Shown: positions 1 through 38,172 of the stretch, piece by piece
Layout: every line of letters starts with the position of its first letter
Position numbering within the stretch: position 1 is the first letter of the stretch
Sequence record: NC_106721.1
Reading direction: 5' to 3' (one strand)
DNA: 64,000 nucleotides
Origin: Escherichia phage EC148
The notes under the pieces: generated by a model
The model's database searches: none
What the model saw: the letters and a program-made list of their open reading frames with translations, nothing else
What the model was told of the DNA's origin: nothing
Made by a program: the position numbers and the translations under genes

Positions 1-101
1 TTTACCATAATGAGCGAGTAAGGATTTTGATGTATTCTTACCTAACCGTTTGTCACTTACTACTAATCGAAATACTTTCATTTCGAAATCCTCTATTAAA
101 A

Positions 102-179
102 TGGAAGCGGGTGCAGGAATCGAACCTACCTCTTTCTAGCTTATGAGACTAGCGATCTCTACCAGAGATCTAACCCGCA
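102..179 (-). tRNA. tRNA, anticodon CAU (Met/fMet- or Ile2-type)
   Basis: Cloverleaf folded by eye on minus strand: CCA encoded (plus 102-104 TGG), acceptor 106-112, T-arm 113-129 with T-loop TTCGATT, anticodon loop CTCATAA (plus 141-147); 1:72 pair appears unpaired (U-U). Confidence 0.5.
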
Positions 180-185
180 ATTGTT

Positions 186-261
186 TGGTCAGTGCGGCAG
201 GACTCGAACCTGCGACCCGAAGCATCCAAGGCTCCCACGCTACCAACTGCGCTACGCACTG
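186..261 (-). tRNA. tRNA-Pro (anticodon UGG)
   Basis: Perfect 7-bp acceptor stem (CAGTGCG/CGCACTG), T-arm GGTTCGAGTCC, anticodon stem GGAGC/GCTTC with loop CTTGGAT, CCA encoded. Confidence 0.7.
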
Positions 262-270
262 TTAATTCTT

Positions 271-468
271 TTATTGTGGAGGAATATTAATAATTCGTCC
301 GTCTACACAATAAACGGTACTAGGAATTGTACTATATATGTAGAAATTCTTTATATTACTCTCTCCGCCACAGAAATTTTTAGCAAATTCATACTCTTTA
401 TTAATGGTTGAGTCAAGTTTAAAACAACCAGTAAGTAGGAATACAGACAGCAGTAAAACTTTTTTCAT
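271..468 (-). CDS. small lipoprotein (signal peptide plus lipobox LLTGC), 65 aa
   Basis: N-terminus MKKVLLLSVFLLTGC; AGGAAA Shine-Dalgarno upstream; own promoter at 501-529. Confidence 0.55.
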   Translation of the reverse strand: MKKVLLLSVFLLTGCFKLDSTINKEYEFAKNFCGGESNIKNFYIYSTIPSTVYCVDGRIINIPPQ

Positions 469-500
469 TTTGCTTTCCTTCTCAACACTTTATAAGGTAT

Positions 501-529
501 ATTATACAGAGAATTAAGCATAATAGCAA
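501..529 (-). promoter_or_regulatory. sigma70-type promoter (minus strand) for the lipoprotein gene
   Basis: Read on minus strand: -35 TTGCTA, 17-nt spacer, -10 TATAAT, with A-rich upstream and extended TG. Confidence 0.6.
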
Positions 530-679
530 ATGAATTTTTAATAAATTTACTTATTGTGTAGGCCACCTGGAGGCTACCAACCCCACGGCTGACAAAGAAG
601 TTTGCGAGACCTCTCTTAAGTGCCAGAATAGACCCGCCGATCTATCGGAACCTACATAATAAGTAAACTTTATAGTGTC

Positions 680-799
680 ATTCTAGACAGGACTCGAACC
701 TGTTATCACTTGTGCGGACTTACGAGAACCATTCTTTCACTCGAATCGAACGAGCTTCTGCCCTCGCCAAGCTGGTTTCCCCATCAACCACGCTAGAAT
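680..799 (-). ncRNA. tRNA-like element, about 120 nt, not resolvable as a canonical tRNA
   Basis: Perfect T-arm ACAGG-TTCGAGT-CCTGT (plus 687-703) and an exact 7-bp acceptor-like pairing between plus 680-686 and 793-799, but 120 nt apart; second T-arm-like motif at plus 739-755. Confidence 0.25.
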
Positions 800-921
800 G
801 TTTGATTGTTTTCAGTGCAAGAGTCCGAGTCTTGGACACGACCGCTTCGCAAGTACATAGGCAGCTTATCATGAGTCAGCACTTCCGAATTGCTAGCTCC
901 GTGTTCTGCACTGAAATTTTA

Positions 922-1269
922 TTAGTTTAACCGTAAAGTATTATCTACTTCACCATTAATTGTTCGGCATTCTTCTGGGATTGCTGGTGTAGCCTTATAT
1001 TCCCACCATTCAGAACCGTCGTATTCACCACGTTCTAACCAAGTTCCATCAGTAAACCACACGTTACCATAAAGCAATTGCCCACCGAAACCAGAATCAT
1101 ATTTAAAGTCTAGATTATTTAGAAAATCTTCAATATCTTTTTCTGTATAACCTACGGGTAACACCCAAACTTCTTTGTCCCCATAATAACCGAATTCTAT
1201 CTTAATACACTTAACTTCAGAATTAATATTCTTTAAGGCAAGTAACAATTCTTCTTTAGCATTAATCAT
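922..1269 (-). CDS. hypothetical protein, 115 aa, Trp/Tyr/Gly-rich
   Basis: Intact ORF between tRNA genes on the same strand as the tRNAs. Confidence 0.5.
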   Translation of the reverse strand: MINAKEELLLALKNINSEVKCIKIEFGYYGDKEVWVLPVGYTEKDIEDFLNNLDFKYDSGFGGQLLYGNVWFTDGTWLERGEYDGSEWWEYKATPAIPEECRTINGEVDNTLRLN

Positions 1270-1295
1270 AGCATATTTCTCGTACTAGTTTAATT

Positions 1296-1372
1296 TGGCG
1301 CGACCGATGGGATTTGAACCCACATTCCCTCCCGTGACAGGGGAGTACCATTACCAAGCCAGCCCCGGTCGC
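1296..1372 (-). tRNA. tRNA-Asp (anticodon GUC)
   Basis: Acceptor GCGACCG/CGGTCGC perfect, T-loop TTCAAAT, anticodon stem CTCCC/GGGAG with loop CTGTCAC, CCA encoded. Confidence 0.65.
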
Positions 1373-1381
1373 ATAATTCAT

Positions 1382-1567
1382 TTACTCAGCTTTGAGTTTT
1401 TCAATAGCTGCATTAAGTTCTTTAAGAAACTTTTTTCGTACATTAAGACGGTTGAGACTTACTAGTATATCATGTTTAAGTTCTTCGATGTATTTCTTCT
1501 CAACTTCAATATTGTTGATAGTGCTATCACGATGAACTTCTAGCTGTGCAATTACATTCTTGGACAT
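1382..1567 (-). CDS. hypothetical small coiled-coil protein, 61 aa
   Basis: ORF with charged heptad-like sequence; co-oriented with neighbours. Confidence 0.4.
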   Translation of the reverse strand: MSKNVIAQLEVHRDSTINNIEVEKKYIEELKHDILVSLNRLNVRKKFLKELNAAIEKLKAE

Positions 1568-1669
1568 GCTTGTTTCCTCAGTTATTAATGAAAATGGTAT
1601 CTGTGACTGAATTCGATGTCAGCAATGATAGCTGGTTGGCTACCGGTTTACTTAACTCTACACAGAATT

Positions 1670-1753
1670 TGGCGGGCCGTGTAGGATTCGAACCTACGTT
1701 GTCTTTCGACATGGATTAACAGTCCACCGCCAAACCGCTTGGCTAACGACCCT
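1670..1753 (-). tRNA. tRNA with anticodon GUU (Asn-type) and a 13-nt variable arm
   Basis: Acceptor GGGTCGT/ACGGCCC, D-stem GCCA/TGGC, anticodon stem GTGGA/TCCAT with loop CTGTTAA, variable arm GTCGAAAGACAAC, T-arm GTAGG-TTCGAAT-CCTAC, CCA encoded; 84 nt. Confidence 0.5.
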
Positions 1754-1904
1754 AAATTTATATTGCTGACTAGGATTTTCACCTAGACGGAGTTAGCACC
1801 GTAGCGTGTAGCGGCATACCTCTCCAAACCGTGCCTCATCTTTCAATTACGGAGACAGTGTTCCTACGCGTGCCTGAATTGATTTAACAACTCTTTCAGC
1901 AAAT

Positions 1905-1980
1905 TGGACGACCGCATGAGATTTGAACTCACATAAAAAGGATTTGCAATCCTTCGCCTAAGCCATTCAGCCAACGGTCG
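1905..1980 (-). tRNA. tRNA-Cys (anticodon GCA)
   Basis: Acceptor with one G-U pair, T-loop TTCAAAT, anticodon stem AAGGA/TCCTT with loop TTGCAAA, CCA encoded. Confidence 0.65.
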
Positions 1981-2028
1981 ATTTATCTTGTTCTGTCATG
2001 TTGCTTCTCCAGTTCAATTTATGTAATT

Positions 2029-2057
2029 ATTATACAGAACTTTTGGAAACTAAGCAA
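2029..2057 (-). promoter_or_regulatory. sigma70-type promoter (minus) upstream of tRNA-Cys
   Basis: -35 TTGCTT / 17 nt / -10 TATAAT on minus strand. Confidence 0.55.
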
Positions 2058-2337
2058 CTACATTTTTTAAAAATTTGATGCCTTTCTTTTTCTTCTTATA
2101 TTTCCACGTTAAGGGATTCTGTCGATTATGAACGCTTGAGATCTTTGTCTCGTCAAAGTTCTTCAATATCATGTAATCACAGGATAATTGTTCTAATGGA
2201 ATGTGATCACCGTCAAAAGCGTATACATAAGGCTGTTGACTAGCACGATAATGATAGACTTTGTTAATTCTACGCTTCAGCAACTTATCCGCGCAGTAAA
2301 TAAAGAAGTTTTCAGGATGCATCAGCAGCTCCCTCAA
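2050..2337 (-). CDS. hypothetical protein, 95 aa
   Basis: ORF co-oriented with the tRNA island. Confidence 0.4.
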   Translation of the reverse strand: MRELLMHPENFFIYCADKLLKRRINKVYHYRASQQPYVYAFDGDHIPLEQLSCDYMILKNFDETKISSVHNRQNPLTWKYKKKKKGIKFLKNVVA

Positions 2338-2339
2338 TT

Positions 2340-2414
2340 TGGTGCACCCTGTTCGTATCGAACGAACCTCTCAAGCTCTTCAGGCAAGCGCTAATCCATC
2401 TCAGCTAAAGGTGC
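2340..2414 (-). tRNA. tRNA-like, anticodon not resolved (possibly CCU); may be degenerate
   Basis: Acceptor pairing plus 2344-2350 with 2408-2414 and perfect T-arm GTTCG-TTCGATA-CGAAC, CCA encoded; only a 4/5-bp anticodon stem could be found. Confidence 0.35.
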
Positions 2415-2420
2415 AAATTT

Positions 2421-2497
2421 TGGCAAACCTACTAGGACTCGAACCTAGACCGTACGGTTTTGGAGACCGACATGCTGTCCAGTAACACTCTAGGAAT
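2421..2497 (-). tRNA. tRNA-Trp (anticodon CCA)
   Basis: T-arm CTAGG-TTCGAGT-CCTAG, anticodon arm CGGT-CTCCAAA-ACCG closely resembling E. coli tRNA-Trp (from memory); acceptor stem has two U-U mismatches; CCA encoded. Confidence 0.5.
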
Positions 2498-2505
2498 GCA
2501 GGAAT

Positions 2506-2582
2506 TGGCGTCCTGTGCGGGGATCGAACCCACAAATCCTACCTTGAAAGGGTAGTGACTTTACCAGTTTGTCTAACAGGAC
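2506..2582 (-). tRNA. tRNA-Glu (anticodon UUC)
   Basis: Perfect acceptor GTCCTGT/ACAGGAC, T-loop TTCGATC, anticodon stem CTACC/GGTAG with loop CTTTCAA, CCA encoded. Confidence 0.7.
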
Positions 2583-2589
2583 TTAAATT

Positions 2590-2680
2590 TGGTGTTGGAT
2601 GATGGAGTCGAACCACCCGAGACCCTTCCGAGTCGGCAGATTTACAGTCTGCTTCGCTACCTCTACGATACTAATCCAAC
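2590..2680 (-). tRNA. tRNA-Tyr (anticodon GUA), about 18-nt variable arm
   Basis: Acceptor GTTGGAT/ATCCAAC perfect, anticodon stem GCAGA/TCTGC with loop CTGTAAA, extended variable arm forming a mini-hairpin, T-arm GGTGG-TTCGACT-CCATC; 91 nt. Confidence 0.6.
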
Positions 2681-2761
2681 ATATTTAAAAGTATTCAAAT
2701 ACTAGTTTAAACACTTTTAGATATGTTTCCAAATTAGATAACTATTATATCAAGTTTTATG

Positions 2762-2800
2762 GCACTGAGCAAGTCAAATTTTAAAGAACTTGCTCAGTGC
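2762..2800. terminator. 12-bp-stem hairpin (possible terminator) just downstream of the TGA-containing ORF
   Basis: GCACTGAGCAAG ... CTTGCTCAGTGC inverted repeat; weak T-run. Confidence 0.4.
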
Positions 2801-2808
2801 TGTATTAG

Positions 2809-3084
2809 TTAGTCGAACTTAGGAGCGACAGTTAAGGAGAATGGAAGTTCGAAAACTTCTTCGCCCTCATCACTAACAGTAATTACACGACCTTTAAGTT
2901 CAGACATTGAAATATCAATATCAGCTTTTGCATCTGGAGCCATGCCAGCTTCAATACATTTAGCTTTAACTTCCGGCAGAAGTTCTACATCGTAGAAATA
3001 AAGCCATTCAATCTCACCTTCCCAGCCTTCTCAGGATTTACAGATTGCACTTTCAATACCAGTTGCTATAACACGATTTTGCAT
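2809..3084 (-). CDS. hypothetical protein interrupted by an in-frame TGA at codon 18 (readthrough candidate or disrupted gene)
   Basis: ATG at plus 3084-3082 with GAAGGAG Shine-Dalgarno 7 nt upstream; frame reads MQNRVIATGIESAICKS-TGA-EGWEGEIEWLYFYDVELL... to TAA at plus 2811-2809. Confidence 0.35.
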
Positions 3085-3174
3085 TCGTTAACTCCTTCAT
3101 CAATTTATATAACTATTATACCAGAAATTTAAAGCAAAAGGCAAGTACATTTTTAAAAATTCTGTTTGGAGGAG

Positions 3175-3381
3175 CTAAACTCCAGATTCTTCAGCTAAGT
3201 CTAGGCTAATAAGAGATATAGCCATAATTGCTGCTCCGTGTTCTCTTTCTCCTGTCTCTTTAGCTAGGGTTATAATATCAAGAAATTGCTTATGAAAGTC
3301 TGCAACCTCTTGAGTCATACCTGCCTCAGCAATCATGCCTTTAAGCATGAAACGTTGTGCGGTAATTTCGGGATTAGCCAT
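3175..3381 (-). CDS. hypothetical protein, 68 aa
   Basis: ORF; start overlaps stop of upstream small ORF (ATGGCTAA arrangement). Confidence 0.45.
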   Translation of the reverse strand: MANPEITAQRFMLKGMIAEAGMTQEVADFHKQFLDIITLAKETGEREHGAAIMAISLISLDLAEESGV

Positions 3382-3541
3382 GTTGTTTCTCCAGTTTCAT
3401 GTTTAATAGTCTACAAATAAAATCAATGTCTTCATCTGTGCCTAGATCTCTATCTTCAAGAGTTGCCTTGAAGTTTTTCGTCAATTCCATGAGGATAACT
3501 TCTCTAGAACGACGTGTTGGCGGAGGTGGATGTCTATACAT
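3374..3541 (-). CDS. hypothetical small protein, 55 aa (MYRHPPPPTRR...)
   Basis: Hand-translated; AAGGAAA Shine-Dalgarno upstream; below the length cut-off of the supplied ORF track. Confidence 0.35.
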   Translation of the reverse strand: MYRHPPPPTRRSREVILMELTKNFKATLEDRDLGTDEDIDFICRLLNMKLEKQHG

Positions 3542-3556
3542 CTTATTTCCTTAAGT

Positions 3557-3633
3557 TGGTAGGGGTGGTGGGATTCGAACCCACAAAACCTGAATTTTAA
3601 GTCCAGTACCTATACCAATTCGATTACACCCCC
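3557..3633 (-). tRNA. tRNA with anticodon UAA (Leu-type anticodon) but short 5-nt variable arm
   Basis: Acceptor GGGGGTG/CACCCCT (one G-U), T-arm GTGGG-TTCGAAT-CCCAC, anticodon stem CTGGA/TTCAG with loop CTTAAAA, CCA encoded; D-stem poorly defined. Confidence 0.5.
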
Positions 3634-3734
3634 ATGTAATCAGTTTATTAGTTGATACATATTATAGCCTAGTGAAAATCCTACTACTAGTCCCACAAAC
3701 CAACCAATATAATAATCTTTTAGTTTCACAGGTA

Positions 3735-3920
3735 TTATCCTCGTTCAATATCTAGGGAAACACCGCAGTTAGGATTAATACCTGTACCGTTGCAATTTGA
3801 ACAAATCCAGATATTGCAAAAAGTATCTCCTGCTTCTGCATCAGAACTTTCACCAATTCCCCTACACTCAGGGCAGGCACATTCTTCTAGCTCTTGCTTG
3901 AGTTCTTGAAACTTGGACAT
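3735..3920 (-). CDS. Cys-rich zinc-ribbon-like small protein, 61 aa
   Basis: Paired Cys motifs CACPEC ... CSNCNG. Confidence 0.45.
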   Translation of the reverse strand: MSKFQELKQELEECACPECRGIGESSDAEAGDTFCNIWICSNCNGTGINPNCGVSLDIERG

Positions 3921-3929
3921 ATAGTCTCC

Positions 3930-4121
3930 TTAGTCAATTACTTTTGAGGCTTCAAGGGAGTCGATATAGTATACGTTTTCTACCATAATCATATAATCTG
4001 CCACTTTATCCATAGCTTGGGCCTCAGAGGTAGCTCTGGCTAACCTATATCCTTTTTTATATTCATCCGGGTATTCTCTATCTTGAATAAATACAACATA
4101 AACTATGTATAATTCCACTTG
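3930..4121 (-). CDS. hypothetical protein; start uncertain (possible GTG start)
   Basis: The supplied ORF 3930-4265 runs through tRNA genes at 4139-4216, so the true start must lie below about 4130. Confidence 0.3.
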   Translation of the reverse strand, partial: QVELYIVYVVFIQDREYPDEYKKGYRLARATSEAQAMDKVADYMIMVENVYYIDSLEASKVID

Positions 4122-4138
4122 TAATCCCCTAATTAAGT

Positions 4139-4216
4139 TGGTGGCTCCCCGAGGATTCGAACCTACGTACCTTCCGGTTATGAGCCGGGTGCTCATACCA
4201 TATGAGCTTGAGAACC
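4139..4216 (-). tRNA. tRNA, anticodon CAU (Met/Ile2-type)
   Basis: Acceptor with two G-U pairs, D-stem GCTC/GAGC, anticodon stem CCGG/CCGG with loop CTCATAA, weak 3-bp T-stem around TTCGAAT, CCA encoded. Confidence 0.5.
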
Positions 4217-4222
4217 AGAATT

Positions 4223-4311
4223 TGGCGGAAGAAGTGGGAATCGAACCCACAAGGCTATATTTCAAACCGACAGATTAGCAATCTGCTGCAATACCGTTAT
4301 GCTATTCTTCC
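4223..4311 (-). tRNA. tRNA-Ser (anticodon GCU), type II
   Basis: Perfect acceptor GGAAGAA/TTCTTCC, anticodon stem GCAGA/TCTGT with loop TTGCTAA, long variable arm, T-arm GTGGG-TTCGATT-CCCAC; 89 nt. Confidence 0.65.
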
Positions 4312-4326
4312 GAATTTATAAGATAT

Positions 4327-4355
4327 ATTATATTAGAAATTTAGCTTCATAGCAA
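4327..4355 (-). promoter_or_regulatory. sigma70-type promoter (minus) driving the tRNA-Ser / tRNA-CAU cluster
   Basis: -35 TTGCTA / 17 nt / -10 TATAAT on minus strand, directly upstream of the tRNA at 4223-4311. Confidence 0.6.
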
Positions 4356-4851
4356 GAAAATTTTTCAAGTTTTCGGTAGACATCTCATCCACATCTACGG
4401 GAGAAACAAAGCCGTTTAATTTTCTAGCAAATTTTTCACCCGCAGGATCGTTGTCTCCGACAGCTACCAATTTAAAAGGTAATAATTTCAGTTGCTTTAA
4501 TAACGCTTTTCCTGGAGAAGAACCTAACATTGCCAGGGCTGGATAACCAGCGTTATGTAGCGCAACTGCCTTAAATACAGATTCAGCGATCAATACTACT
4601 TTTTCATCTCCATTGAGAGTTTCTAGTCCCCATACACACTGGGTAGTAGAATAAGTAAAATATTTAGCTTCAAAGGGACACTTACCATGACCTTTTGGAG
4701 CAGAAGGATTATACGTCTGATAGCCTCGCAACATCCCGGAGAAGTCATACAACGGGACTGTTAGCCATCCTTCCGGACTTAACCAGCAATGATATTTATC
4801 TGTATCAAATCCTCTGGATAAGAGGTGCTGTGTTAGCTCATCAACATTCAT
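4333..4851 (-). CDS. Toprim-domain protein (DnaG-like catalytic core, no zinc finger)
   Basis: Conserved Glu in VVLIAESVF and DxD in LVAVGDNDPAGEKFARKL; start set at MNVDEL because the promoter at 4882-4910 lies inside the longer ORF. Confidence 0.55.
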   Translation of the reverse strand: MNVDELTQHLLSRGFDTDKYHCWLSPEGWLTVPLYDFSGMLRGYQTYNPSAPKGHGKCPFEAKYFTYSTTQCVWGLETLNGDEKVVLIAESVFKAVALHNAGYPALAMLGSSPGKALLKQLKLLPFKLVAVGDNDPAGEKFARKLNGFVSPVDVDEMSTENLKNFLAMKLNF

Positions 4852-4881
4852 ATTTGGTTCCTCTCTCAAATTTATAGATAT

Positions 4882-4910
4882 ATTATACAGAGAATTTAGC
4901 ATTCAAGCAA
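4882..4910 (-). promoter_or_regulatory. sigma70-type promoter (minus) for the Toprim-protein gene
   Basis: -35 TTGCTT / 17 nt / -10 TATAAT on minus strand. Confidence 0.55.
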
Positions 4911-5025
4911 TCAAATTTTTTAACTTTTTAGAGGAAAATCATAGGGCACTTAAGGGTAGCAGATAAGTGGGGAGGACCAAAATTTGTGACCCCACTAAAA
5001 ATCCGGGGGCAATTTTTAAAGACCC

Positions 5026-5054
5026 CTTGACATTTTCGCTGGGGTAGTGTAAAG
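5026..5054 (+). promoter_or_regulatory. sigma70-type promoter for the plus-strand three-gene cassette
   Basis: -35 TTGACA (5026-5031), 17-nt spacer, -10 TAAAGT (5049-5054). Confidence 0.55.
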
Positions 5055-5117
5055 TATATGTTATGGATGAGTGATCAAAGAGACACACATTTTCTATATA
5101 CTAGGAGGTGTCAAAAT

Positions 5118-6107
5118 ATGACAGAAGAAGTAGCTAAGAGTCCTGAGACCGTCGCTAGCGTTGCAGCAGAACTGCACAGTCACGAGGAATCAGATAAGAA
5201 AAAGTGGGAGAAGGTCAGAGCCTACGAAGAAAAACATCGTGAACACGATGATGAAGAAGAAGATGACGATGATGAACATTGTCATAAATATGGAAAACAT
5301 AAAATGCAAGAACCAGTAAACGTATTCACTAGTGGCTTCCCTGGCCTACTGGGTGGTTACCCAGCAAACGCAGGTGCTTTCGGTGGTGAAGGTATGGGAC
5401 TATTCGGAGCTATCCTAATCGGTGCTCTATTAACCGGCGGATTCGGTGGTTTCGGTGGATTCGGTGGACGTGGTGTAGTTGGTGAAGGTACCGCAGTTGA
5501 TGCAGTACTTCAGAACCAAGATACCGCTAGTATTCTAGCAGCTATCAACACTACTCGTACAGAGGCTAACCAGGGTACTGGAGCTGTTTTAAGCGCAGTT
5601 AACAATGGTTTTAGCCAGACAACCCAAAACCAGAGCCGTGATACTCAGTCTGTACTAACTACGATCTACGGTACAGGTGCTAATCTGTCTAATCAGATCT
5701 GCCAGGAAACTCGCAACGTTATTCAGGGTCAGTTCGATCTTTCTCGCCAGATTGATCAATCTTTCGCAGCTAACCAGATAGCTCGTGCACAAGATAAGTT
5801 TGATTCTGCACAGATCGCTTTCCAGCAGACTTTACAAACTAATAACCAGTTTGCCGCTGTTCAGGCTCAGATGTGTGCTAACCAGAACTCTCTGGAACGT
5901 CAGATCGCTGAATGTTGCTGTGAACTTCAGACTGCGATCGCTGGTGTAACTACTGCGCGTATCCAGGATGAGTTAGACGCATGTCGCCTACGTGAAGCAA
6001 TCGCTGCGGGTAGCGGTGCTAACGGTCAGGTAATTAATCAAATCGCTTTAAGTCTTGGTGCTATCACTCAGACTCTGGCTGGTCTGCAGGCTAAACTGCC
6101 GGCTTAA
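5118..6107 (+). CDS. hypothetical low-complexity protein: polyacidic N-terminus, Gly-zipper hydrophobic segment, Gln/Asn/Thr-rich C-terminal region with Cys cluster
   Basis: Strong RBS TAGGAGGTG before ATG 5118; promoter at 5026-5054; translation-optimised codon choice; no recognisable catalytic motif. Confidence 0.6.
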   Translation: MTEEVAKSPETVASVAAELHSHEESDKKKWEKVRAYEEKHREHDDEEEDDDDEHCHKYGKHKMQEPVNVFTSGFPGLLGGYPANAGAFGGEGMGLFGAILIGALLTGGFGGFGGFGGRGVVGEGTAVDAVLQNQDTASILAAINTTRTEANQGTGAVLSAVNNGFSQTTQNQSRDTQSVLTTIYGTGANLSNQICQETRNVIQGQFDLSRQIDQSFAANQIARAQDKFDSAQIAFQQTLQTNNQFAAVQAQMCANQNSLERQIAECCCELQTAIAGVTTARIQDELDACRLREAIAAGSGANGQVINQIALSLGAITQTLAGLQAKLPA

Positions 6108-6128
6108 TATTAAGGGGAGGAGCCCATT

Positions 6129-6545
6129 ATGAGTAAATATGGTTTTGTAAATAACGGACTTAATCAAAGTATGGGCTCCCAGCAGCCCATTCCGGGTCTG
6201 GATAACCCCTACTTACAACAGTTGCAACAGCGTTTAGCAGAAGCGCAACAGATGCAGCAACAACTCCAGCAAAACCCTGGAAGTGTGAGTCCTATGCAAA
6301 TGATGCAGCAAATGAGCGGGCAGTCGCAAATGCCTCAACAAATGCAGCAACAGGTGCCTCAGCAGCAAGTTCAGCAACAAACCCAACAACCGCAGGTTTC
6401 TGCGGAAGGACAGGCAGTACTAGCCCTTTTCGAAGACTTCGCAAAGACAGAGGATGGGAAACAGCTTGTATCACTTATGGGTAAGTTTAATAGCTTCTGC
6501 CAAAGCCAAGTTGCAAAAGCTCAAAATGGGGGTAGTAACTCCTAA
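6129..6545 (+). CDS. hypothetical Gln-rich protein, 138 aa
   Basis: RBS AAGGGGAGG; Q-rich repeats (PQQMQQQ...). Confidence 0.6.
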   Translation: MSKYGFVNNGLNQSMGSQQPIPGLDNPYLQQLQQRLAEAQQMQQQLQQNPGSVSPMQMMQQMSGQSQMPQQMQQQVPQQQVQQQTQQPQVSAEGQAVLALFEDFAKTEDGKQLVSLMGKFNSFCQSQVAKAQNGGSNS

Positions 6546-6554
6546 GGAGGAAAT

Positions 6555-6749
6555 ATGTGTTGCAGAAAATCTGTTTCGTGCTGCCCAGTGCCTGTAGCAC
6601 GTTGTTGCTCTCCAGCAATGTTTACGCAAATACCGGCGTTCAATCCCTTTGCCTTTAAGCCTACTCTTATCCTGCCCCCTAGAGTAGATTTTCAGTCAAG
6701 ATTGGCCTCCCGTATGGGTGGTTGCTGTACACCGAGAGTATGGTTCTAA
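6555..6749 (+). CDS. hypothetical Cys-rich small protein, 64 aa
   Basis: RBS AAGGAGG; 8 Cys including CC pairs; followed by terminator hairpins. Confidence 0.55.
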   Translation: MCCRKSVSCCPVPVARCCSPAMFTQIPAFNPFAFKPTLILPPRVDFQSRLASRMGGCCTPRVWF

Positions 6750-6761
6750 ACCAAAAACAAA

Positions 6762-6795
6762 AGCCCCTGCCGAAAGGTAAGGGGCTTTTTCTTTT
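6762..6795 (+). terminator. rho-independent terminator ending the plus-strand cassette
   Basis: AGCCCCT...AGGGGCT hairpin followed by TTTTTCTTTT. Confidence 0.65.
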
Positions 6796-6799
6796 GCCT

Positions 6800-6840
6800 T
6801 AAATACAGAAAAGCCCGCGCTCTCGTAGGAAACGCGGGCT
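6800..6840 (-). terminator. rho-independent terminator for the SPFH gene (convergent with the previous one)
   Basis: GCCCGCG...CGCGGGC hairpin followed on minus strand by TTTTCTGTATTT. Confidence 0.6.
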
Positions 6841-33025: not shown

Positions 33026-33997
33026 ATGACCAATGTAAAAGACTTTATTAAACGTTGCCAAGAAGCATATTATCAAGGTATGTCTTTAATCTCTGATGAA
33101 GAGTATGATTGCCTGGTAAAACGCTTTCCGTTAGAAGAAGAGATCGGACCTAAGGGCGATATTCCACATCTGTATCGTATGTATTCTTTACAGAAAGTTT
33201 ATTATAATCGTGGAGATAAACCTCCGTTTAACCCGTTAGGTCAAGTAGAAACTGATAAGTTAGATGGTTGTGCAATTTCTCTGTTATATATTAATGGCGA
33301 ATTTGTTCAAGCACTAACTCGTGGTAATGGTATTCTAGGGAATGATGTCACAAGCAACGTAAGATTGCTGAATATCCCTAAAAAGATTTCCCAAAAAGTA
33401 CCTACTCAAATCACTGGTGAAGTTCTAATTACAAAAGAAGTAGAAAATAAACGTAACTTTGCCTCTGGTGCTATTAACCTCAAAGATAGTGATGATTTTG
33501 TACAACGTATCGGAGAAGGTGGTTTAATCTTCGTTGCATATGGTATCCAGTGTTCTGCTGAATCTGTAGGTATTACAGAAGCATATTTAAAAGATATGCT
33601 TTGGCTGGAGAATGAGAACTTCTTAACAGTTGTTAATGTGCGTTCCTTCTTTAAATGGATTCCGACGGATGGTAAAGTTGTTCGTATTAATGACAACAAC
33701 AAATTCTTCCGTGAAGGCTGGACTAATAAATTCCCTCGTGGAGCATTCGCTATTAAAGAGGATGAAGAAGGCGAGGTTACAACTCTTACTAAAGTTGAAT
33801 GGCAGGTAGGGGCTTCTGGTAAAGTAACTCCAGTTGGTTATTTCGAACCGGTAATTATTGATGATGCTACAATTGTTAAAGCGACTCTTAATAACGTTGA
33901 TTATATTAACTCTCTTGATCTAGAGATCGGTTGCCAGATTCGAGTGATTCGTGCTGGTGGTGTAATCCCGTGCATAGTAGAGCGAGTATACGAGTAA
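33026..33997 (+). CDS. NAD-dependent DNA ligase, adenylation-domain subunit
   Basis: KxDG active-site motif (TDKLDGCAIS) and LigA-type nucleotidyltransferase/OB region. Confidence 0.8.
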   Translation: MTNVKDFIKRCQEAYYQGMSLISDEEYDCLVKRFPLEEEIGPKGDIPHLYRMYSLQKVYYNRGDKPPFNPLGQVETDKLDGCAISLLYINGEFVQALTRGNGILGNDVTSNVRLLNIPKKISQKVPTQITGEVLITKEVENKRNFASGAINLKDSDDFVQRIGEGGLIFVAYGIQCSAESVGITEAYLKDMLWLENENFLTVVNVRSFFKWIPTDGKVVRINDNNKFFREGWTNKFPRGAFAIKEDEEGEVTTLTKVEWQVGASGKVTPVGYFEPVIIDDATIVKATLNNVDYINSLDLEIGCQIRVIRAGGVIPCIVERVYE

Positions 33998-34196: not shown

Positions 34197-34970
34197 TTGA
34201 TGAAAATCGAAATTCCAACACAATGTCCCTCTTGTGGTTCTAAGCTAGATCTTGTCAACGGACAATTATTTTGTCGGAATAAGTCCAACTGTCCAGCGCA
34301 ATCAAGTAAGTTAATTGAGAACTTCTGTACAAAAATGAAGTTAAAGGGTTTTGGTCCAAAAACTATTGAGAAGCTGGAGCTGACGAAGATTTCAGAACTA
34401 TTTTACCTAACCGAAGAAGATTTGGTTAGAGCCGTGGGTAGCAAGGTTGCCGCTAAGTTAATTAGCGAATTAAATACTAAAGTTCGCGGAGACATTGACT
34501 TTGGTTCAGTTCTCGGTTCTTTAGGAATCCCTCTAATTGGAGAGGTTGCAGCAAAGAAATTATCCCAAAATTGCACTAGCTTCCACGATGTGAAGGCTGA
34601 CGGCAAGGCTGGAGAAAATTATAAAGCCTGGCTAAATTCCCCACAAGGCAAGGATGTTATCGAATTACCGTGGAAATTCTCAACTGGTGCTAAAGCTAAA
34701 ACCGTCGTTACTGATGATTTAGTTGCCCAGCCAAATGGAATCGCGGTATGTATTACCGGATCTTTGCAAGACTTTGCAAATCGAACGGATGCAACAAACT
34801 ATTTAGAAGGTCTAGGATATACGGTTAAGAAATCTGTTACCAAAGACGTCAAATACCTAATCTGTGAGGATGAATCGAAGCGTTCTTCCTCATCTTATAA
34901 GAAAGCCGAAACGAATGGGATAGAAATCCTGTCGATTAAAGAACTATTGGAGAAAAATAATAATGTCTAA
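34197..34970 (+). CDS. NAD-dependent DNA ligase, zinc-finger/HhH/BRCT subunit
   Basis: CPSCGS...C...C zinc finger, HhH-like segment, C-terminal BRCT-like region; separated from the adenylation gene by a promoter-containing spacer. Confidence 0.75.
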   Translation: MMKIEIPTQCPSCGSKLDLVNGQLFCRNKSNCPAQSSKLIENFCTKMKLKGFGPKTIEKLELTKISELFYLTEEDLVRAVGSKVAAKLISELNTKVRGDIDFGSVLGSLGIPLIGEVAAKKLSQNCTSFHDVKADGKAGENYKAWLNSPQGKDVIELPWKFSTGAKAKTVVTDDLVAQPNGIAVCITGSLQDFANRTDATNYLEGLGYTVKKSVTKDVKYLICEDESKRSSSSYKKAETNGIEILSIKELLEKNNNV

Positions 34971-35812: not shown

Positions 35813-37285
35813 ATGACCTTGTTTAACGTGCAAGCTGTAGTGTTGAAGATGCTTCTAGCTTCCGAACAGAAGCAAATAGCATTGGAAACATTCTCAAAAC
35901 TGCATAAAGATCATTTTAATGACGCTTTCTCCTCAATTTACCAAGCCGTCCAGAATTATTATAAAAAATATAACACAATGCCGTCCATTGACGCACTTAT
36001 GCTTGAAGCTAATAGGAACGCCCGCCTTTCTCAAGCCCTAGTCGTCTTAGCTAACACTCAAATTCCAGAAGTGAGCATGGAACAGGCACTTGAAGTCCTA
36101 GAGGCCGAGTATACACAGGATTTATTCCTGAAGCTTCTAGAAACAGACGTGCTTCAAGATTTAACAATGCTGGATCAGGGAGAAATTCTCAACCGAGTTG
36201 CCTCCCTTCACTTAAAATTAGAAGAGAAAGTAACGAATACTGGAAAAGTATTCAACGCAGATAACATGCGTATTTTCCAGAGAGAAGAAGATACCAAACT
36301 GAACTTAATCGCTCTTGGTATTTGTAATGAGTTCGATGCTCAAATTGGTTTAGCTCGCACAGAAACGTTACTGCTTGGTGGTTGGCGTGGTACTGGTAAA
36401 TCCATTATCTGTTCAAACATACAGGTTCAGCAATATTTGAATGGAGATATTGCTCCATACTTCTCAATTGAGATGAAAGAACATGAAGTATTTAGACGTA
36501 ATCTAGCCATGTTAGCCGGGGTATCAGCACTAGCAATGCGTAATAATACTCTAGAAGGTGCAGCTCTATTGAGATTAGCCAGAACTAGAGCTAGAATGTT
36601 CAACGGGGGTGAAGAGCTTTTCGATAACTTCGTTAAACAGTATACAATGGCTAAGATGAGTGATTTCTACGATATGGAGAGTAAGCTAATAGAGGGGTAT
36701 GAACTACATACTCCTATGATTATCGTTTATGACCCTGAACTGTCCATTACAACAGTTGACGTAGAATTAAATAAATTAGTTGCTAGATATGGTGATAAAG
36801 TTACAGTAGCTTTACTGGACTATATTAACCAAACCCGACTTCCAGATTCTAAAACCATTGATATGTATGACTGGAAGGAACAGATGGTTGTTAGCTCGTC
36901 TTTCAAATCCATCTGCCAGAAACATAACGTGGCTGGCGTAGCTCCCTACCAGATCGATCAAGATGGTAGAACACGTATGTCAAAGGGGATTCTTGATTCC
37001 GCAGACATGGCTGCTAATCTTAATGCTGCTAAAGCTGATAATGGTCAAGGTGCTATTATGTTTGACTTTGTTAAGACTCGTTCTTCTGATAGCGTGAAGT
37101 TTATGCCTAAAATGAATTGGGAAACTCTGCGAATGGATAATACTACCAACCTAGCAATGGAAGATATATCTCAAATGGAAGCTGAGTTCGTTATCCCTAT
37201 TGAGAAGGATAAGCCGGCTCAACCTAAACGTTCTAAGAAAGACAAAACTGAAAATTCAACAGGTGAACAGGCCAGCGATATATGA
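35813..37285 (+). CDS. putative DnaB-like replicative helicase (RecA-fold ATPase)
   Basis: Walker A GGWRGTGKS; start set at MTLFNV with RBS AAGGAG because the longer ORF overlaps the upstream terminator. Confidence 0.5.
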   Translation: MTLFNVQAVVLKMLLASEQKQIALETFSKLHKDHFNDAFSSIYQAVQNYYKKYNTMPSIDALMLEANRNARLSQALVVLANTQIPEVSMEQALEVLEAEYTQDLFLKLLETDVLQDLTMLDQGEILNRVASLHLKLEEKVTNTGKVFNADNMRIFQREEDTKLNLIALGICNEFDAQIGLARTETLLLGGWRGTGKSIICSNIQVQQYLNGDIAPYFSIEMKEHEVFRRNLAMLAGVSALAMRNNTLEGAALLRLARTRARMFNGGEELFDNFVKQYTMAKMSDFYDMESKLIEGYELHTPMIIVYDPELSITTVDVELNKLVARYGDKVTVALLDYINQTRLPDSKTIDMYDWKEQMVVSSSFKSICQKHNVAGVAPYQIDQDGRTRMSKGILDSADMAANLNAAKADNGQGAIMFDFVKTRSSDSVKFMPKMNWETLRMDNTTNLAMEDISQMEAEFVIPIEKDKPAQPKRSKKDKTENSTGEQASDI

Positions 37286-38172
37286 GTAGAATAACAGAAC
37301 TACTTGATCTGAAAGGCATTGAATATAAAGACACAGGTGGGGACATCCTCATCTGTTGTCTCAATCCAGATCATGACGATAAACACCCAAGTTTGCGTAT
37401 TGATCCTGAAACAGGTATTATGCACTGCTTGAGTTGTGGCTTCGGTAAAGGTATACCGAGCATTTACCATTATTTTAATGAGACTCAGTACCGACAGTCT
37501 CCAAGACTATCGCAGGTACGTAAAAAGATTTCAGAGATTAGGAATGGATCTACAAATCTTGCAATTCCTGAATCTGCTTACCTTTTCGAAGGTGATTTCC
37601 GAGGTATAAGTTCTAAGACCTTGAAGAAATACTTTGCTTTCCAACACCAAGCAGACTGGGAAGGCAGAATTGTATTCCCAATCACAGATGCTGTTGGACG
37701 CAATATCCTATTTTTGGGTCGTTCTATAAACAGTTCTGCCCCTCCTAAATACTTAGTAAAACCAAAACAAGTTTCACCACCGATTTTCCCTGTACGATAT
37801 AATACTCCAGTTCTTATTCTAGTTGAAGGTATCTTTGATATGCTGAACCTAGAGGATAATGGTATAGACTATGCTTCTTGCTGCTTTGGTACACATCAGT
37901 TTACTTCAGATAACATTGCAGATAAGTTTAGCCCTTATATTATTGCTGGTGTAAAAGTTGTTGTTATCTTACTAGATAATGATGCTTCTGGTAATAAAGC
38001 TGCACAAGCGTTGGCCAAGCTAATTCGTACAAAAACGCGTTTAACACCTGTAGTGGCTAACTTTCTTCTACCCGAAGGTAAAGACCCTGGTGACTTAAAT
38101 AAAGAAGAAATTGATATGTTAGCAAAACGTATTGAAATTTTAGTTGCTGAATCGCTTAAAGATTTGGTATAA
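37282..38172 (+). CDS. DNA primase (zinc-finger plus Toprim)
   Basis: CHC2-type zinc finger (CCLNPDHDDKHP...HCLSCG), Toprim Glu (ILVEGIFD) and DxD (LLDNDASG). Confidence 0.8.
   Translation: MSRITELLDLKGIEYKDTGGDILICCLNPDHDDKHPSLRIDPETGIMHCLSCGFGKGIPSIYHYFNETQYRQSPRLSQVRKKISEIRNGSTNLAIPESAYLFEGDFRGISSKTLKKYFAFQHQADWEGRIVFPITDAVGRNILFLGRSINSSAPPKYLVKPKQVSPPIFPVRYNTPVLILVEGIFDMLNLEDNGIDYASCCFGTHQFTSDNIADKFSPYIIAGVKVVVILLDNDASGNKAAQALAKLIRTKTRLTPVVANFLLPEGKDPGDLNKEEIDMLAKRIEILVAESLKDLV

Follow-up and report, generated by a model that had tools for sequence, protein, structure and literature searches.

The open reading frame (ORF) at the head of Table 1 is rad (retron anti-defense), an already described gene known as T5.076, T5 ORF071, and ORF75 of phage PhiSP15. 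Profile searches and a predicted structure indicate that its product, Rad, is a minimal but complete RNA-polymerase domain of the DnaG/T7 type, without zinc-binding or helicase-binding parts. We propose, as a reading that we hold to be evenly poised between right and wrong, that rad serves T5-like phages as an early, non-essential counter-defence gene and that Rad acts as a metal-dependent nuclease on retron ncRNA/msDNA through a primase-type site.

The window (the whole stretch analyzed here, 64,000 nucleotides of Escherichia phage EC148, NC_106721.1) belongs to a T5-like phage (Tequintavirus), and its segment from 3000 to 7000 is 100% identical to Escherichia phages SUT_E420 and T5_ev212. 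The ORF corresponds to T5.076, labeled "DNA primase-like protein" in the DT57C annotation, and is 97% identical to the T5 copy (L024), which occupies the same locus amid tRNA genes. The differences between the two copies are N2T, Q8E, F60L, K63R, and K144Q (window residue, position, T5 residue). Several hundred T5-like genomes keep rad; sorted by identity, 88 rad records were at least 99% identical, 129 fell between 95 and 99%, 1 between 90 and 95%, and 52 between 80 and 90%. The BF23 paper equates T5 ORF071, a TOPRIM "primase," with Rad and reports that BF23 naturally lacks rad. The preprint of Azam et al. (2023; 10.1101/2023.03.15.532788) assigns Rad to ORF75 of the T5-like phage PhiSP15 with a size of 189 aa, which is the length of the long ORF in the window. 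The residues mutated in that preprint (R13, P33, I88, D135, and E156) all fit the 172-aa numbering, and two of the five fit the 189-aa numbering.

According to the same preprint (10.1101/2023.03.15.532788), Rad rescues phages from retrons Ec67, Ec78, Ec83, Ec48, and Se72, and rad lies within a tRNA-rich "anti-defence island," an 8-kb segment that the viable phages T5n and SP15m have lost by deletion; tRNA islands are known anti-defence islands. Besides, Rad lowers msDNA and msr-msd RNA, with RT and effector transcripts unchanged, from which its authors infer that Rad degrades retron ncRNA. The substitutions R13E, P33T, I88T, D135H, and E156H weaken Rad; single active-site mutants keep part of the activity, and double mutants abolish it. 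The peer-reviewed version of this work (Nat Commun 2024; PMC11555353) retains the genetic finding, with ORF75 as the determinant of evading retron-Eco2 and retron-Eco7, and its authors could not determine the ORF75 mechanism. In a later study, a T5 isolate carrying ORF75 failed to evade another retron, FORC82 of type I-A. Two homologues that the preprint had tested were found among our matches, namely, vB_Sen_I1 (97.7% identical to the window copy), a variant described there as weaker, and Proteus phage Privateer (44% identity, TM 0.82 to 0.85). The anti-retron role is known from the published experiments with the SP15 and T5 alleles and is presumed for the window allele.

The start of rad can be read at two in-frame ATG codons, at 4851 and at 4902. 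Only the former has a Shine-Dalgarno sequence; the ATG of the longer reading lacks one and falls within the promoter spacer, so that the 17-codon extension used by some annotations and by the Rad preprint is probably not translated. The early promoter consists of a -35 hexamer TTGCTT (4910..4905), a 17-nt spacer, and a -10 hexamer TATAAT (4887..4882), with an A-rich stretch upstream. We take the promoter and leader to be closely similar to the classical T5 PN25 early promoter. The promoter was located by eye and from the annotation of AJ604531, a GenBank record covering the tRNA region from a T5-like phage, in which P15a, a ribosome-binding site, and a 172-aa coding sequence annotated "putative DNA primase-related protein" are recorded. 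It was missed by the automated promoter scan because the -35 hexamer agrees with TTGACA at only three of six positions; it fits the T5 promoter consensus quoted in HQ665011 (TTGCTT-N17-18-TATAATA). A second promoter sits in the last rad codons and is directed into tRNA-Ser, the first of two tRNA genes directly downstream of rad. Altogether, 14 tRNA genes lie within 100 to 8500, of which ARAGORN found 12 (all in 100 to 8000) and Rfam added 2, and the replication module is 32 kb away; the first-pass annotation had thus correctly placed the ORF in a tRNA island far from that module. One Rfam-only tRNA-like gene, at the far end of this region, is annotated "tRNA-OTHER" in phage MM-1.

Table 1. Features of the rad region and other loci of the window discussed in the text
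Feature	Position	Strand	Remarks
rad (T5.076 / T5 ORF071 / PhiSP15 ORF75) CDS	4333..4851	-	172 aa; stop included
17-codon in-frame extension (189-aa reading)	4852..4902	-	Probably untranslated
Shine-Dalgarno GAGAGG	4860..4865	-	8 nt 5' of ATG 4851..4849; RBS at same place in AJ604531
Sigma-70 early promoter of rad	4882..4910	-	P15a of AJ604531; sequence and annotation
Second promoter, TTGCTA-17-TATAAT	4327..4355	-	P15b of AJ604531; promoter scan and annotation
tRNA-Ser(GCU)	4223..4311	-	21 nt 3' of rad, same strand
tRNA, CAU anticodon	4142..4216	-	Met or Ile(CAU) in relatives; Rfam, missed by ARAGORN
tRNA-like gene	8424..8495	-	Rfam only
Zinc-finger protein	3735..3920	-	61 aa; ~400 nt downstream of rad, same strand
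Low-complexity ORF	5058..6107	+	Acidic E/D run, Gly-rich hydrophobic stretch, Q/N-rich tail
Low-complexity Q-rich ORF	6129..6545	+	138 aa
DNA ligase, NAD dependent, one part of two	33026..33997	+	
DNA ligase, NAD dependent, other part	34197..34970	+	
Canonical DnaG-type primase	37282..38172	+	296 aa; Zn_ribbon_DnaG, DNAG_N, and Toprim

Other ORFs near rad were noted in passing. The 61-aa protein encoded downstream carries two DnaJ-type CxxCxGxG zinc-finger motifs (CPECRGIG and CSNCNGTG) and is labeled "anti-termination protein Q-like" in relatives. The two low-complexity ORFs are divergently oriented, and their labels in relatives are inconsistent ("hypothetical," "transmembrane," and even "cAMP-dependent protein kinase").

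The first-pass annotation had described the ORF as a stand-alone Toprim-domain protein with the Toprim glutamate and DxD motif, and had named a profile search as the possible refutation of the fold. This search supports Toprim: the Pfam family Toprim_2 (PF13155) matched Rad with an E value of 2.2e-5 and 25.2 bits against a curated cut-off of 22.1. The glutamate is E90, within LIAES, and the DxD is D133 and D135, within the quoted peptide GDNDPAGEKFARKL, whose first residue is 132. Rad does stand alone, but it is not a bare Toprim domain, since residues ~1 to 80 constitute the N-terminal subdomain of the primase RNA-polymerase domain and are followed by the Toprim domain (residues ~84 to 160, with E90, D133, D135, D153, and E156). 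A match to PHROG 849 ("DNA primase") was obtained with an E value of 2.5e-62. The absence of a zinc finger and of a helicase-binding region, both stated in the earlier annotation, was borne out. Rad has three scattered cysteines (C22, C58, and C72) without a CxxC pair, implying that there is no zinc finger, and Zn_ribbon_DnaG, which the canonical T5 primase has, was absent from Rad in the Pfam search. The C terminus lies ~15 residues past Toprim motif VI, without a helicase-binding domain, and no ABC-ATPase domain was detected by Pfam.

An AlphaFold model of Rad built from six homologues had a mean pLDDT of 89 and a pTM of 0.85. The top match of this model in a Foldseek search against the PDB was the T7 gp4 primase fragment 1NUI (TM 0.68, ~186 columns), followed by DnaG RNA-polymerase domains of several bacteria (including 5W33 and 1DDE), Twinkle, and T4 gp61; 8DVF was also among the full-length matches. 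These primase matches span nearly all of Rad, mostly with 170 to 215 alignment columns, whereas RNase M5 (6Z2B and 6TPQ) superposes on the C-terminal Toprim half only (TM 0.43 to 0.46, ~100 columns). When a 91-sequence family profile was compared with PDB sequences, DnaG primases were the only matches at E values of ≤0.001 (8e-7 to 2.5e-4); a narrow six-sequence profile gave only noise in the same comparison (ribosomal protein L4 and DnaG, with E values of ~1).

The active site of the primase core is intact. We aligned 130 stand-alone sequences (129 representative clusters and the window protein) and found that G43, Y64, and G75 were conserved in 100%, E90 in 99%, R13, Y47, and F93 in 96%, D135 and G138 in 93%, D153 in 90%, and D133 in 87%. 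A profile alignment of Rad with T7 gp4 equates K63 with K128, E90 with E157, and D133/D135 with D207/D209, and DnaG motifs II, IV, and V align with Rad. On our own reading, HLLSRGF of Rad is presumably the "RG" helix with which the catalytic core of DnaG begins, and TVPLYDFSGMLRGYQ, a stretch aligned to Aquifex DnaG, is what we take to be DnaG motif II.

The sole PADLOC match to rad was "RTasDnaG-like" (defence-RT-associated DnaG-like; E=5e-7), covering the Toprim part (residues 84 to 145; 4336..4851, minus strand), a curious echo of the fact that Rad counters RT-based retrons. Mimicry of defence Toprim domains was considered; PADLOC yields only this weak, Toprim-level match, which is uninformative in this respect.

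As the earlier annotation had proposed, Rad is additional to the canonical primase, which is complete and is flanked by genes for a DnaB-like helicase and Pol A; no helicase gene adjoins rad in T5. Recent paralogy of rad with the canonical primase was rejected, the two sharing 23% identity over 132 residues with an E value of 0.057. In the same window, an NAD-dependent DNA ligase is split over two genes, with adenylation and OB domains in one and HhH and BRCT in the other.

Rad belongs to a large family. An exhaustive profile search yielded 855 representative clusters at E values of ≤0.001, compared with 6 relatives by a word-index search, and the best 150 of the 855 clusters are mostly stand-alone proteins of 165 to 190 aa. 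Two members are fused to tRNA CCA-adding enzymes (loci L045 and L051): in P0072 the CCA-adding enzyme precedes the Rad module, and in P0098 Rad precedes a PolyA_pol head, the other half (HD and tRNA_NucTran2_2) being encoded by the following ORF on a T4-like contig. Besides, genes for a CCA-adding enzyme and a Rad-like protein are adjacent in 22 records of Vibrio/Shewanella phages of ~135 to 140 kb (H66-H87; L008 1703..3537). These fusions support an RNA substrate for the Rad family, and together with the adjacency they make such a substrate, in particular structured RNA, plausible. Other Rad modules (P0023, P0041, P0065, P0054, P0081, P0090, P0107, and P0061) are fused to an Arr-like ADP-ribosyltransferase, a HAD phosphatase, ParB(-N), Mom, GNAT, an NMNAT-like cytidylyltransferase, or a DUF3268 zinc-finger domain. 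Some Rad-module fusions are ~1000 aa long and resemble phage "polyvalent" counter-defence proteins; in a 2017 survey, Toprim primase modules of polyvalent proteins were reported to occur only in conjugative elements. A literature search found no paper linking a Toprim/Rad module with a tRNA nucleotidyltransferase.

Ten genomic contexts were surveyed (the T5-like window, Kagunavirus, Alexandravirus, Arash, Proteus phage 2, pf16, Vibrio phage F101, the 90-kb viral contig L042, and two metagenomic contigs). A tRNA island was present in three of the ten and not in the other seven; no tRNA was found near the homologues in Kagunavirus, Alexandravirus, pf16, and the two metagenomic contigs. Most simply, this can be read as a clustering of counter-defence cargo that includes tRNAs, CCA-adding enzymes, and Rad alike. 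Rad as the sole primase of Guernseyvirinae was considered and rejected, given that Kagunavirus has a separate 746-aa helicase-primase.

A split form of the gene was observed in jumbo phages. In Erwinia phage Alexandra (gp024/gp025; L004 2989..3502), the Rad homologue is divided where the N-terminal subdomain meets the Toprim domain, giving two 87-aa ORFs that overlap in different frames, and it is likewise split in ~57 Erwinia jumbo-phage records. By tblastn, two pieces were seen in all seven jumbo-phage matches listed (Erwinia, Serratia, and Dickeya). Either a conserved frameshift or a protein that is truly split could account for this arrangement.

In the mechanism that we propose, a minimal DnaG/T7-type primase core (N-terminal subdomain and Toprim) would have lost its zinc- and helicase-binding parts and left the replisome. 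The primase groove would bind structured RNA or the retron RNA-DNA junction, and the two-metal Toprim center (E90, D133, D135, and D153) would cut the bound nucleic acid. Rad would in this way remove or disable the nucleic-acid component of the retron, i.e., the msr-msd ncRNA and its msDNA product, and the retron effector would consequently never be armed. We infer here that Rad itself is the nuclease, that RNA is its substrate, and that the primase groove is the binding site. Catalysis is favored over mere binding because the metal-binding acids are near-universally conserved. The conservation of E90, D135, D153, D133, R13, and Y64, together with the weakening of Rad by D135H and E156H, likewise argues for an enzyme rather than a decoy. 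The suggestion of a nuclease-like factor in the first-pass annotation is thus plausible and agrees with the ncRNA degradation that the preprint infers.

Several observations weaken the nuclease model. The drop in ncRNA could be indirect, and single active-site mutants are only partly inactive. The kept residues are nucleotidyl-transferase-like (probable equivalents of T7 K128 and DnaG R146) and would suit a polymerase-type reaction equally. In some retrons, loss of msDNA should reportedly release the toxin, as is said of retron-Sen2, so that plain destruction of msDNA would harm the phage. Furthermore, the failure to evade FORC82 would be unexpected if any retron ncRNA were a substrate.

The main rival to the nuclease reading, which we consider unlikely, is that Rad is a polymerase using NTPs either on single-stranded msDNA or at the point where RNA joins DNA in the retron, which is primer-template-like. 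Such an enzyme may lengthen the msr RNA on the msDNA, make an RNA copy of the msDNA, or put a nucleotide on the branching G and thereby block RT priming; the retron complex would be mis-assembled and then turned over. All motifs of the DnaG RNA-polymerase domain are kept, beyond the Toprim acids: the xLxxRG helix with R13, motif II with P33/G39/G43, the [K/R]63-Y64 pair aligned with T7 K128, E90, D133-x-D135-x-x-G138, and D153-x-[D/N]-E156. Moreover, the structural matches along the whole length of Rad are primases, RNase M5 as a nuclease being matched in the Toprim half only, and the msr-msd junction of mature msDNA would resemble a primase product, being a short RNA-DNA hybrid on single-stranded DNA. 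However, T7 K122, which is needed for template-directed synthesis, is not conserved and on our own reading of the sequences aligns with the variable position 46 of Rad, the zinc-binding domain is missing, and cleavage explains the joint loss of ncRNA and msDNA more simply. It is quite improbable, in our view, that Rad is non-catalytic and sequesters msDNA/ncRNA or competes with the RT for them via the primase groove. The slight effect of single metal-residue substitutions would fit such a role, but double mutants abolish the activity, and metal-binding residues conserved in 87 to 99% of 130 divergent sequences are hard to explain without catalysis.

Two further readings would give Rad a function apart from retrons. 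We regard it as rather doubtful that the native job of the family is tRNA-end processing or repair with CCA-adding enzymes, acting on phage pre-tRNAs or on tRNAs that host defences have damaged, with retron evasion as a consequence or side activity. The two independent CCA-adding-enzyme fusions in opposite orders, the adjacency of the two genes in the Vibrio/Shewanella phage lineage, and the member fused to a HAD-type phosphatase are consistent with this idea, as are the homologues in tRNA islands of T5-like phages, Proteus phage 2, and Arash, an unclassified 180-kb Salmonella phage. In the literature, tRNA or translation is the target of PtuAB, which are retron effectors, and of RT-Toprim fusions. 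On the other hand, homologues in Kagunavirus, Alexandravirus, pf16, and the two metagenomic contigs have no tRNA nearby, tRNA islands are anti-defence islands in which co-location may mean shared purpose only, and the long multidomain fusions may bring together counter-defence domains that are unrelated to one another. The effectors of retrons Ec48 and Se72 are not known to target tRNA. Yet Rad blocks both of these retrons and lowers msDNA (10.1101/2023.03.15.532788).

It is highly improbable that Rad is an auxiliary replicative primase subunit working alongside the helicase of T5 or its canonical primase, e.g., with a zinc-binding domain borrowed in trans, and this part of the earlier annotation was unsupported. 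A primase fold and motifs are indeed present, PHROG 849 and many records say "DNA primase," the Kagunavirus homologue begins at the stop codon of a DNA helicase gene, and one family member has an N-terminal DUF3268 zinc-finger domain. Nevertheless, rad appears to be unneeded for replication, because BF23 naturally lacks it, the 8-kb deletion mutants T5n and SP15m grow, and T5 and Kagunavirus each have a separate full primase. The gene also lies amid tRNAs, with its own early promoter, at a distance from the replication module. Template-directed priming requires a zinc-binding domain in both T7 and DnaG, and Rad has none. Finally, the phenotype demonstrated for Rad is a different one, namely, retron evasion (PMC11555353).

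Looking beyond retrons, we tentatively suggest, as an unlikely idea, that the Rad family (~850 clusters at 50% identity, mostly stand-alone proteins of 165 to 190 aa) may be an unrecognized class of primase-derived enzymes acting on structured RNA ends or RNA-DNA junctions, perhaps by NTP-dependent transfer instead of hydrolysis and perhaps in tRNA repair with CCA-adding enzymes, with retron ncRNA/msDNA as one substrate of several. If true, such RNA-end enzymes would put the catalytic core of DnaG to a biochemical use that is new. Among phage proteins, the already known Rad was the first for which a broad disarming of retrons was reported. The complete core, being more than a Toprim domain, and the links to CCA-adding enzymes narrow its candidate chemistry to that of a nuclease or a nucleotidyl transferase, and its candidate substrate to RNA or an RNA-DNA junction. 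Besides, the label "DNA primase," which this gene bears in hundreds of genomes of T5-like phages, Guernseyvirinae, and jumbo phages, probably misleads.

Among known systems, the Rad of PhiSP15 and T5 is the same gene at the same genomic position, with the 189-aa long ORF and identical residues at the five mutated sites; apart from the five substitutions relative to T5, the window copy shows no substantive difference. The RNA-polymerase domain of T7 gp4 (1NUI), the best structural match, has the same two-subdomain layout in ~175 residues. Unlike T7 gp4, with which it shares ~16% identity, Rad has no zinc-binding domain, linker, or helicase, does not conserve K122, and is placed outside the replisome. 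Compared with bacterial DnaG, whose catalytic cores (1DDE, 3B39, 2AU3, 4E2K, and 5W33) are the only PDB sequences matched by the family profile at the threshold given above, Rad is missing the CHC2 zinc ribbon, the DnaB-binding domain, and, within the core, the C-terminal helical subdomain.

The Toprim nucleases (RNase M5, OLD, GajA, and AriB) have the Toprim fold and acidic metal site in common with Rad, and structured RNAs (rRNA and tRNA) are the substrates that RNase M5 and AriB cleave, in the type of reaction proposed for Rad. In contrast to OLD, Gabija GajA, and PARIS AriB, Rad has neither an ABC ATPase domain nor an ABC ATPase partner. The Toprim domain is C-terminal in Rad and N-terminal in RNase M5; Rad has a primase N-terminal subdomain where RNase M5 does not match, and it lacks the C-terminal rRNA/uL18-binding domain of that enzyme. 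The primase-like domain of metazoan Twinkle, also a structural match, is another T7-type core kept after the priming role was lost. However, the Twinkle domain has lost its catalytic residues and is still fused to a helicase, whereas Rad keeps its catalytic residues and stands alone.
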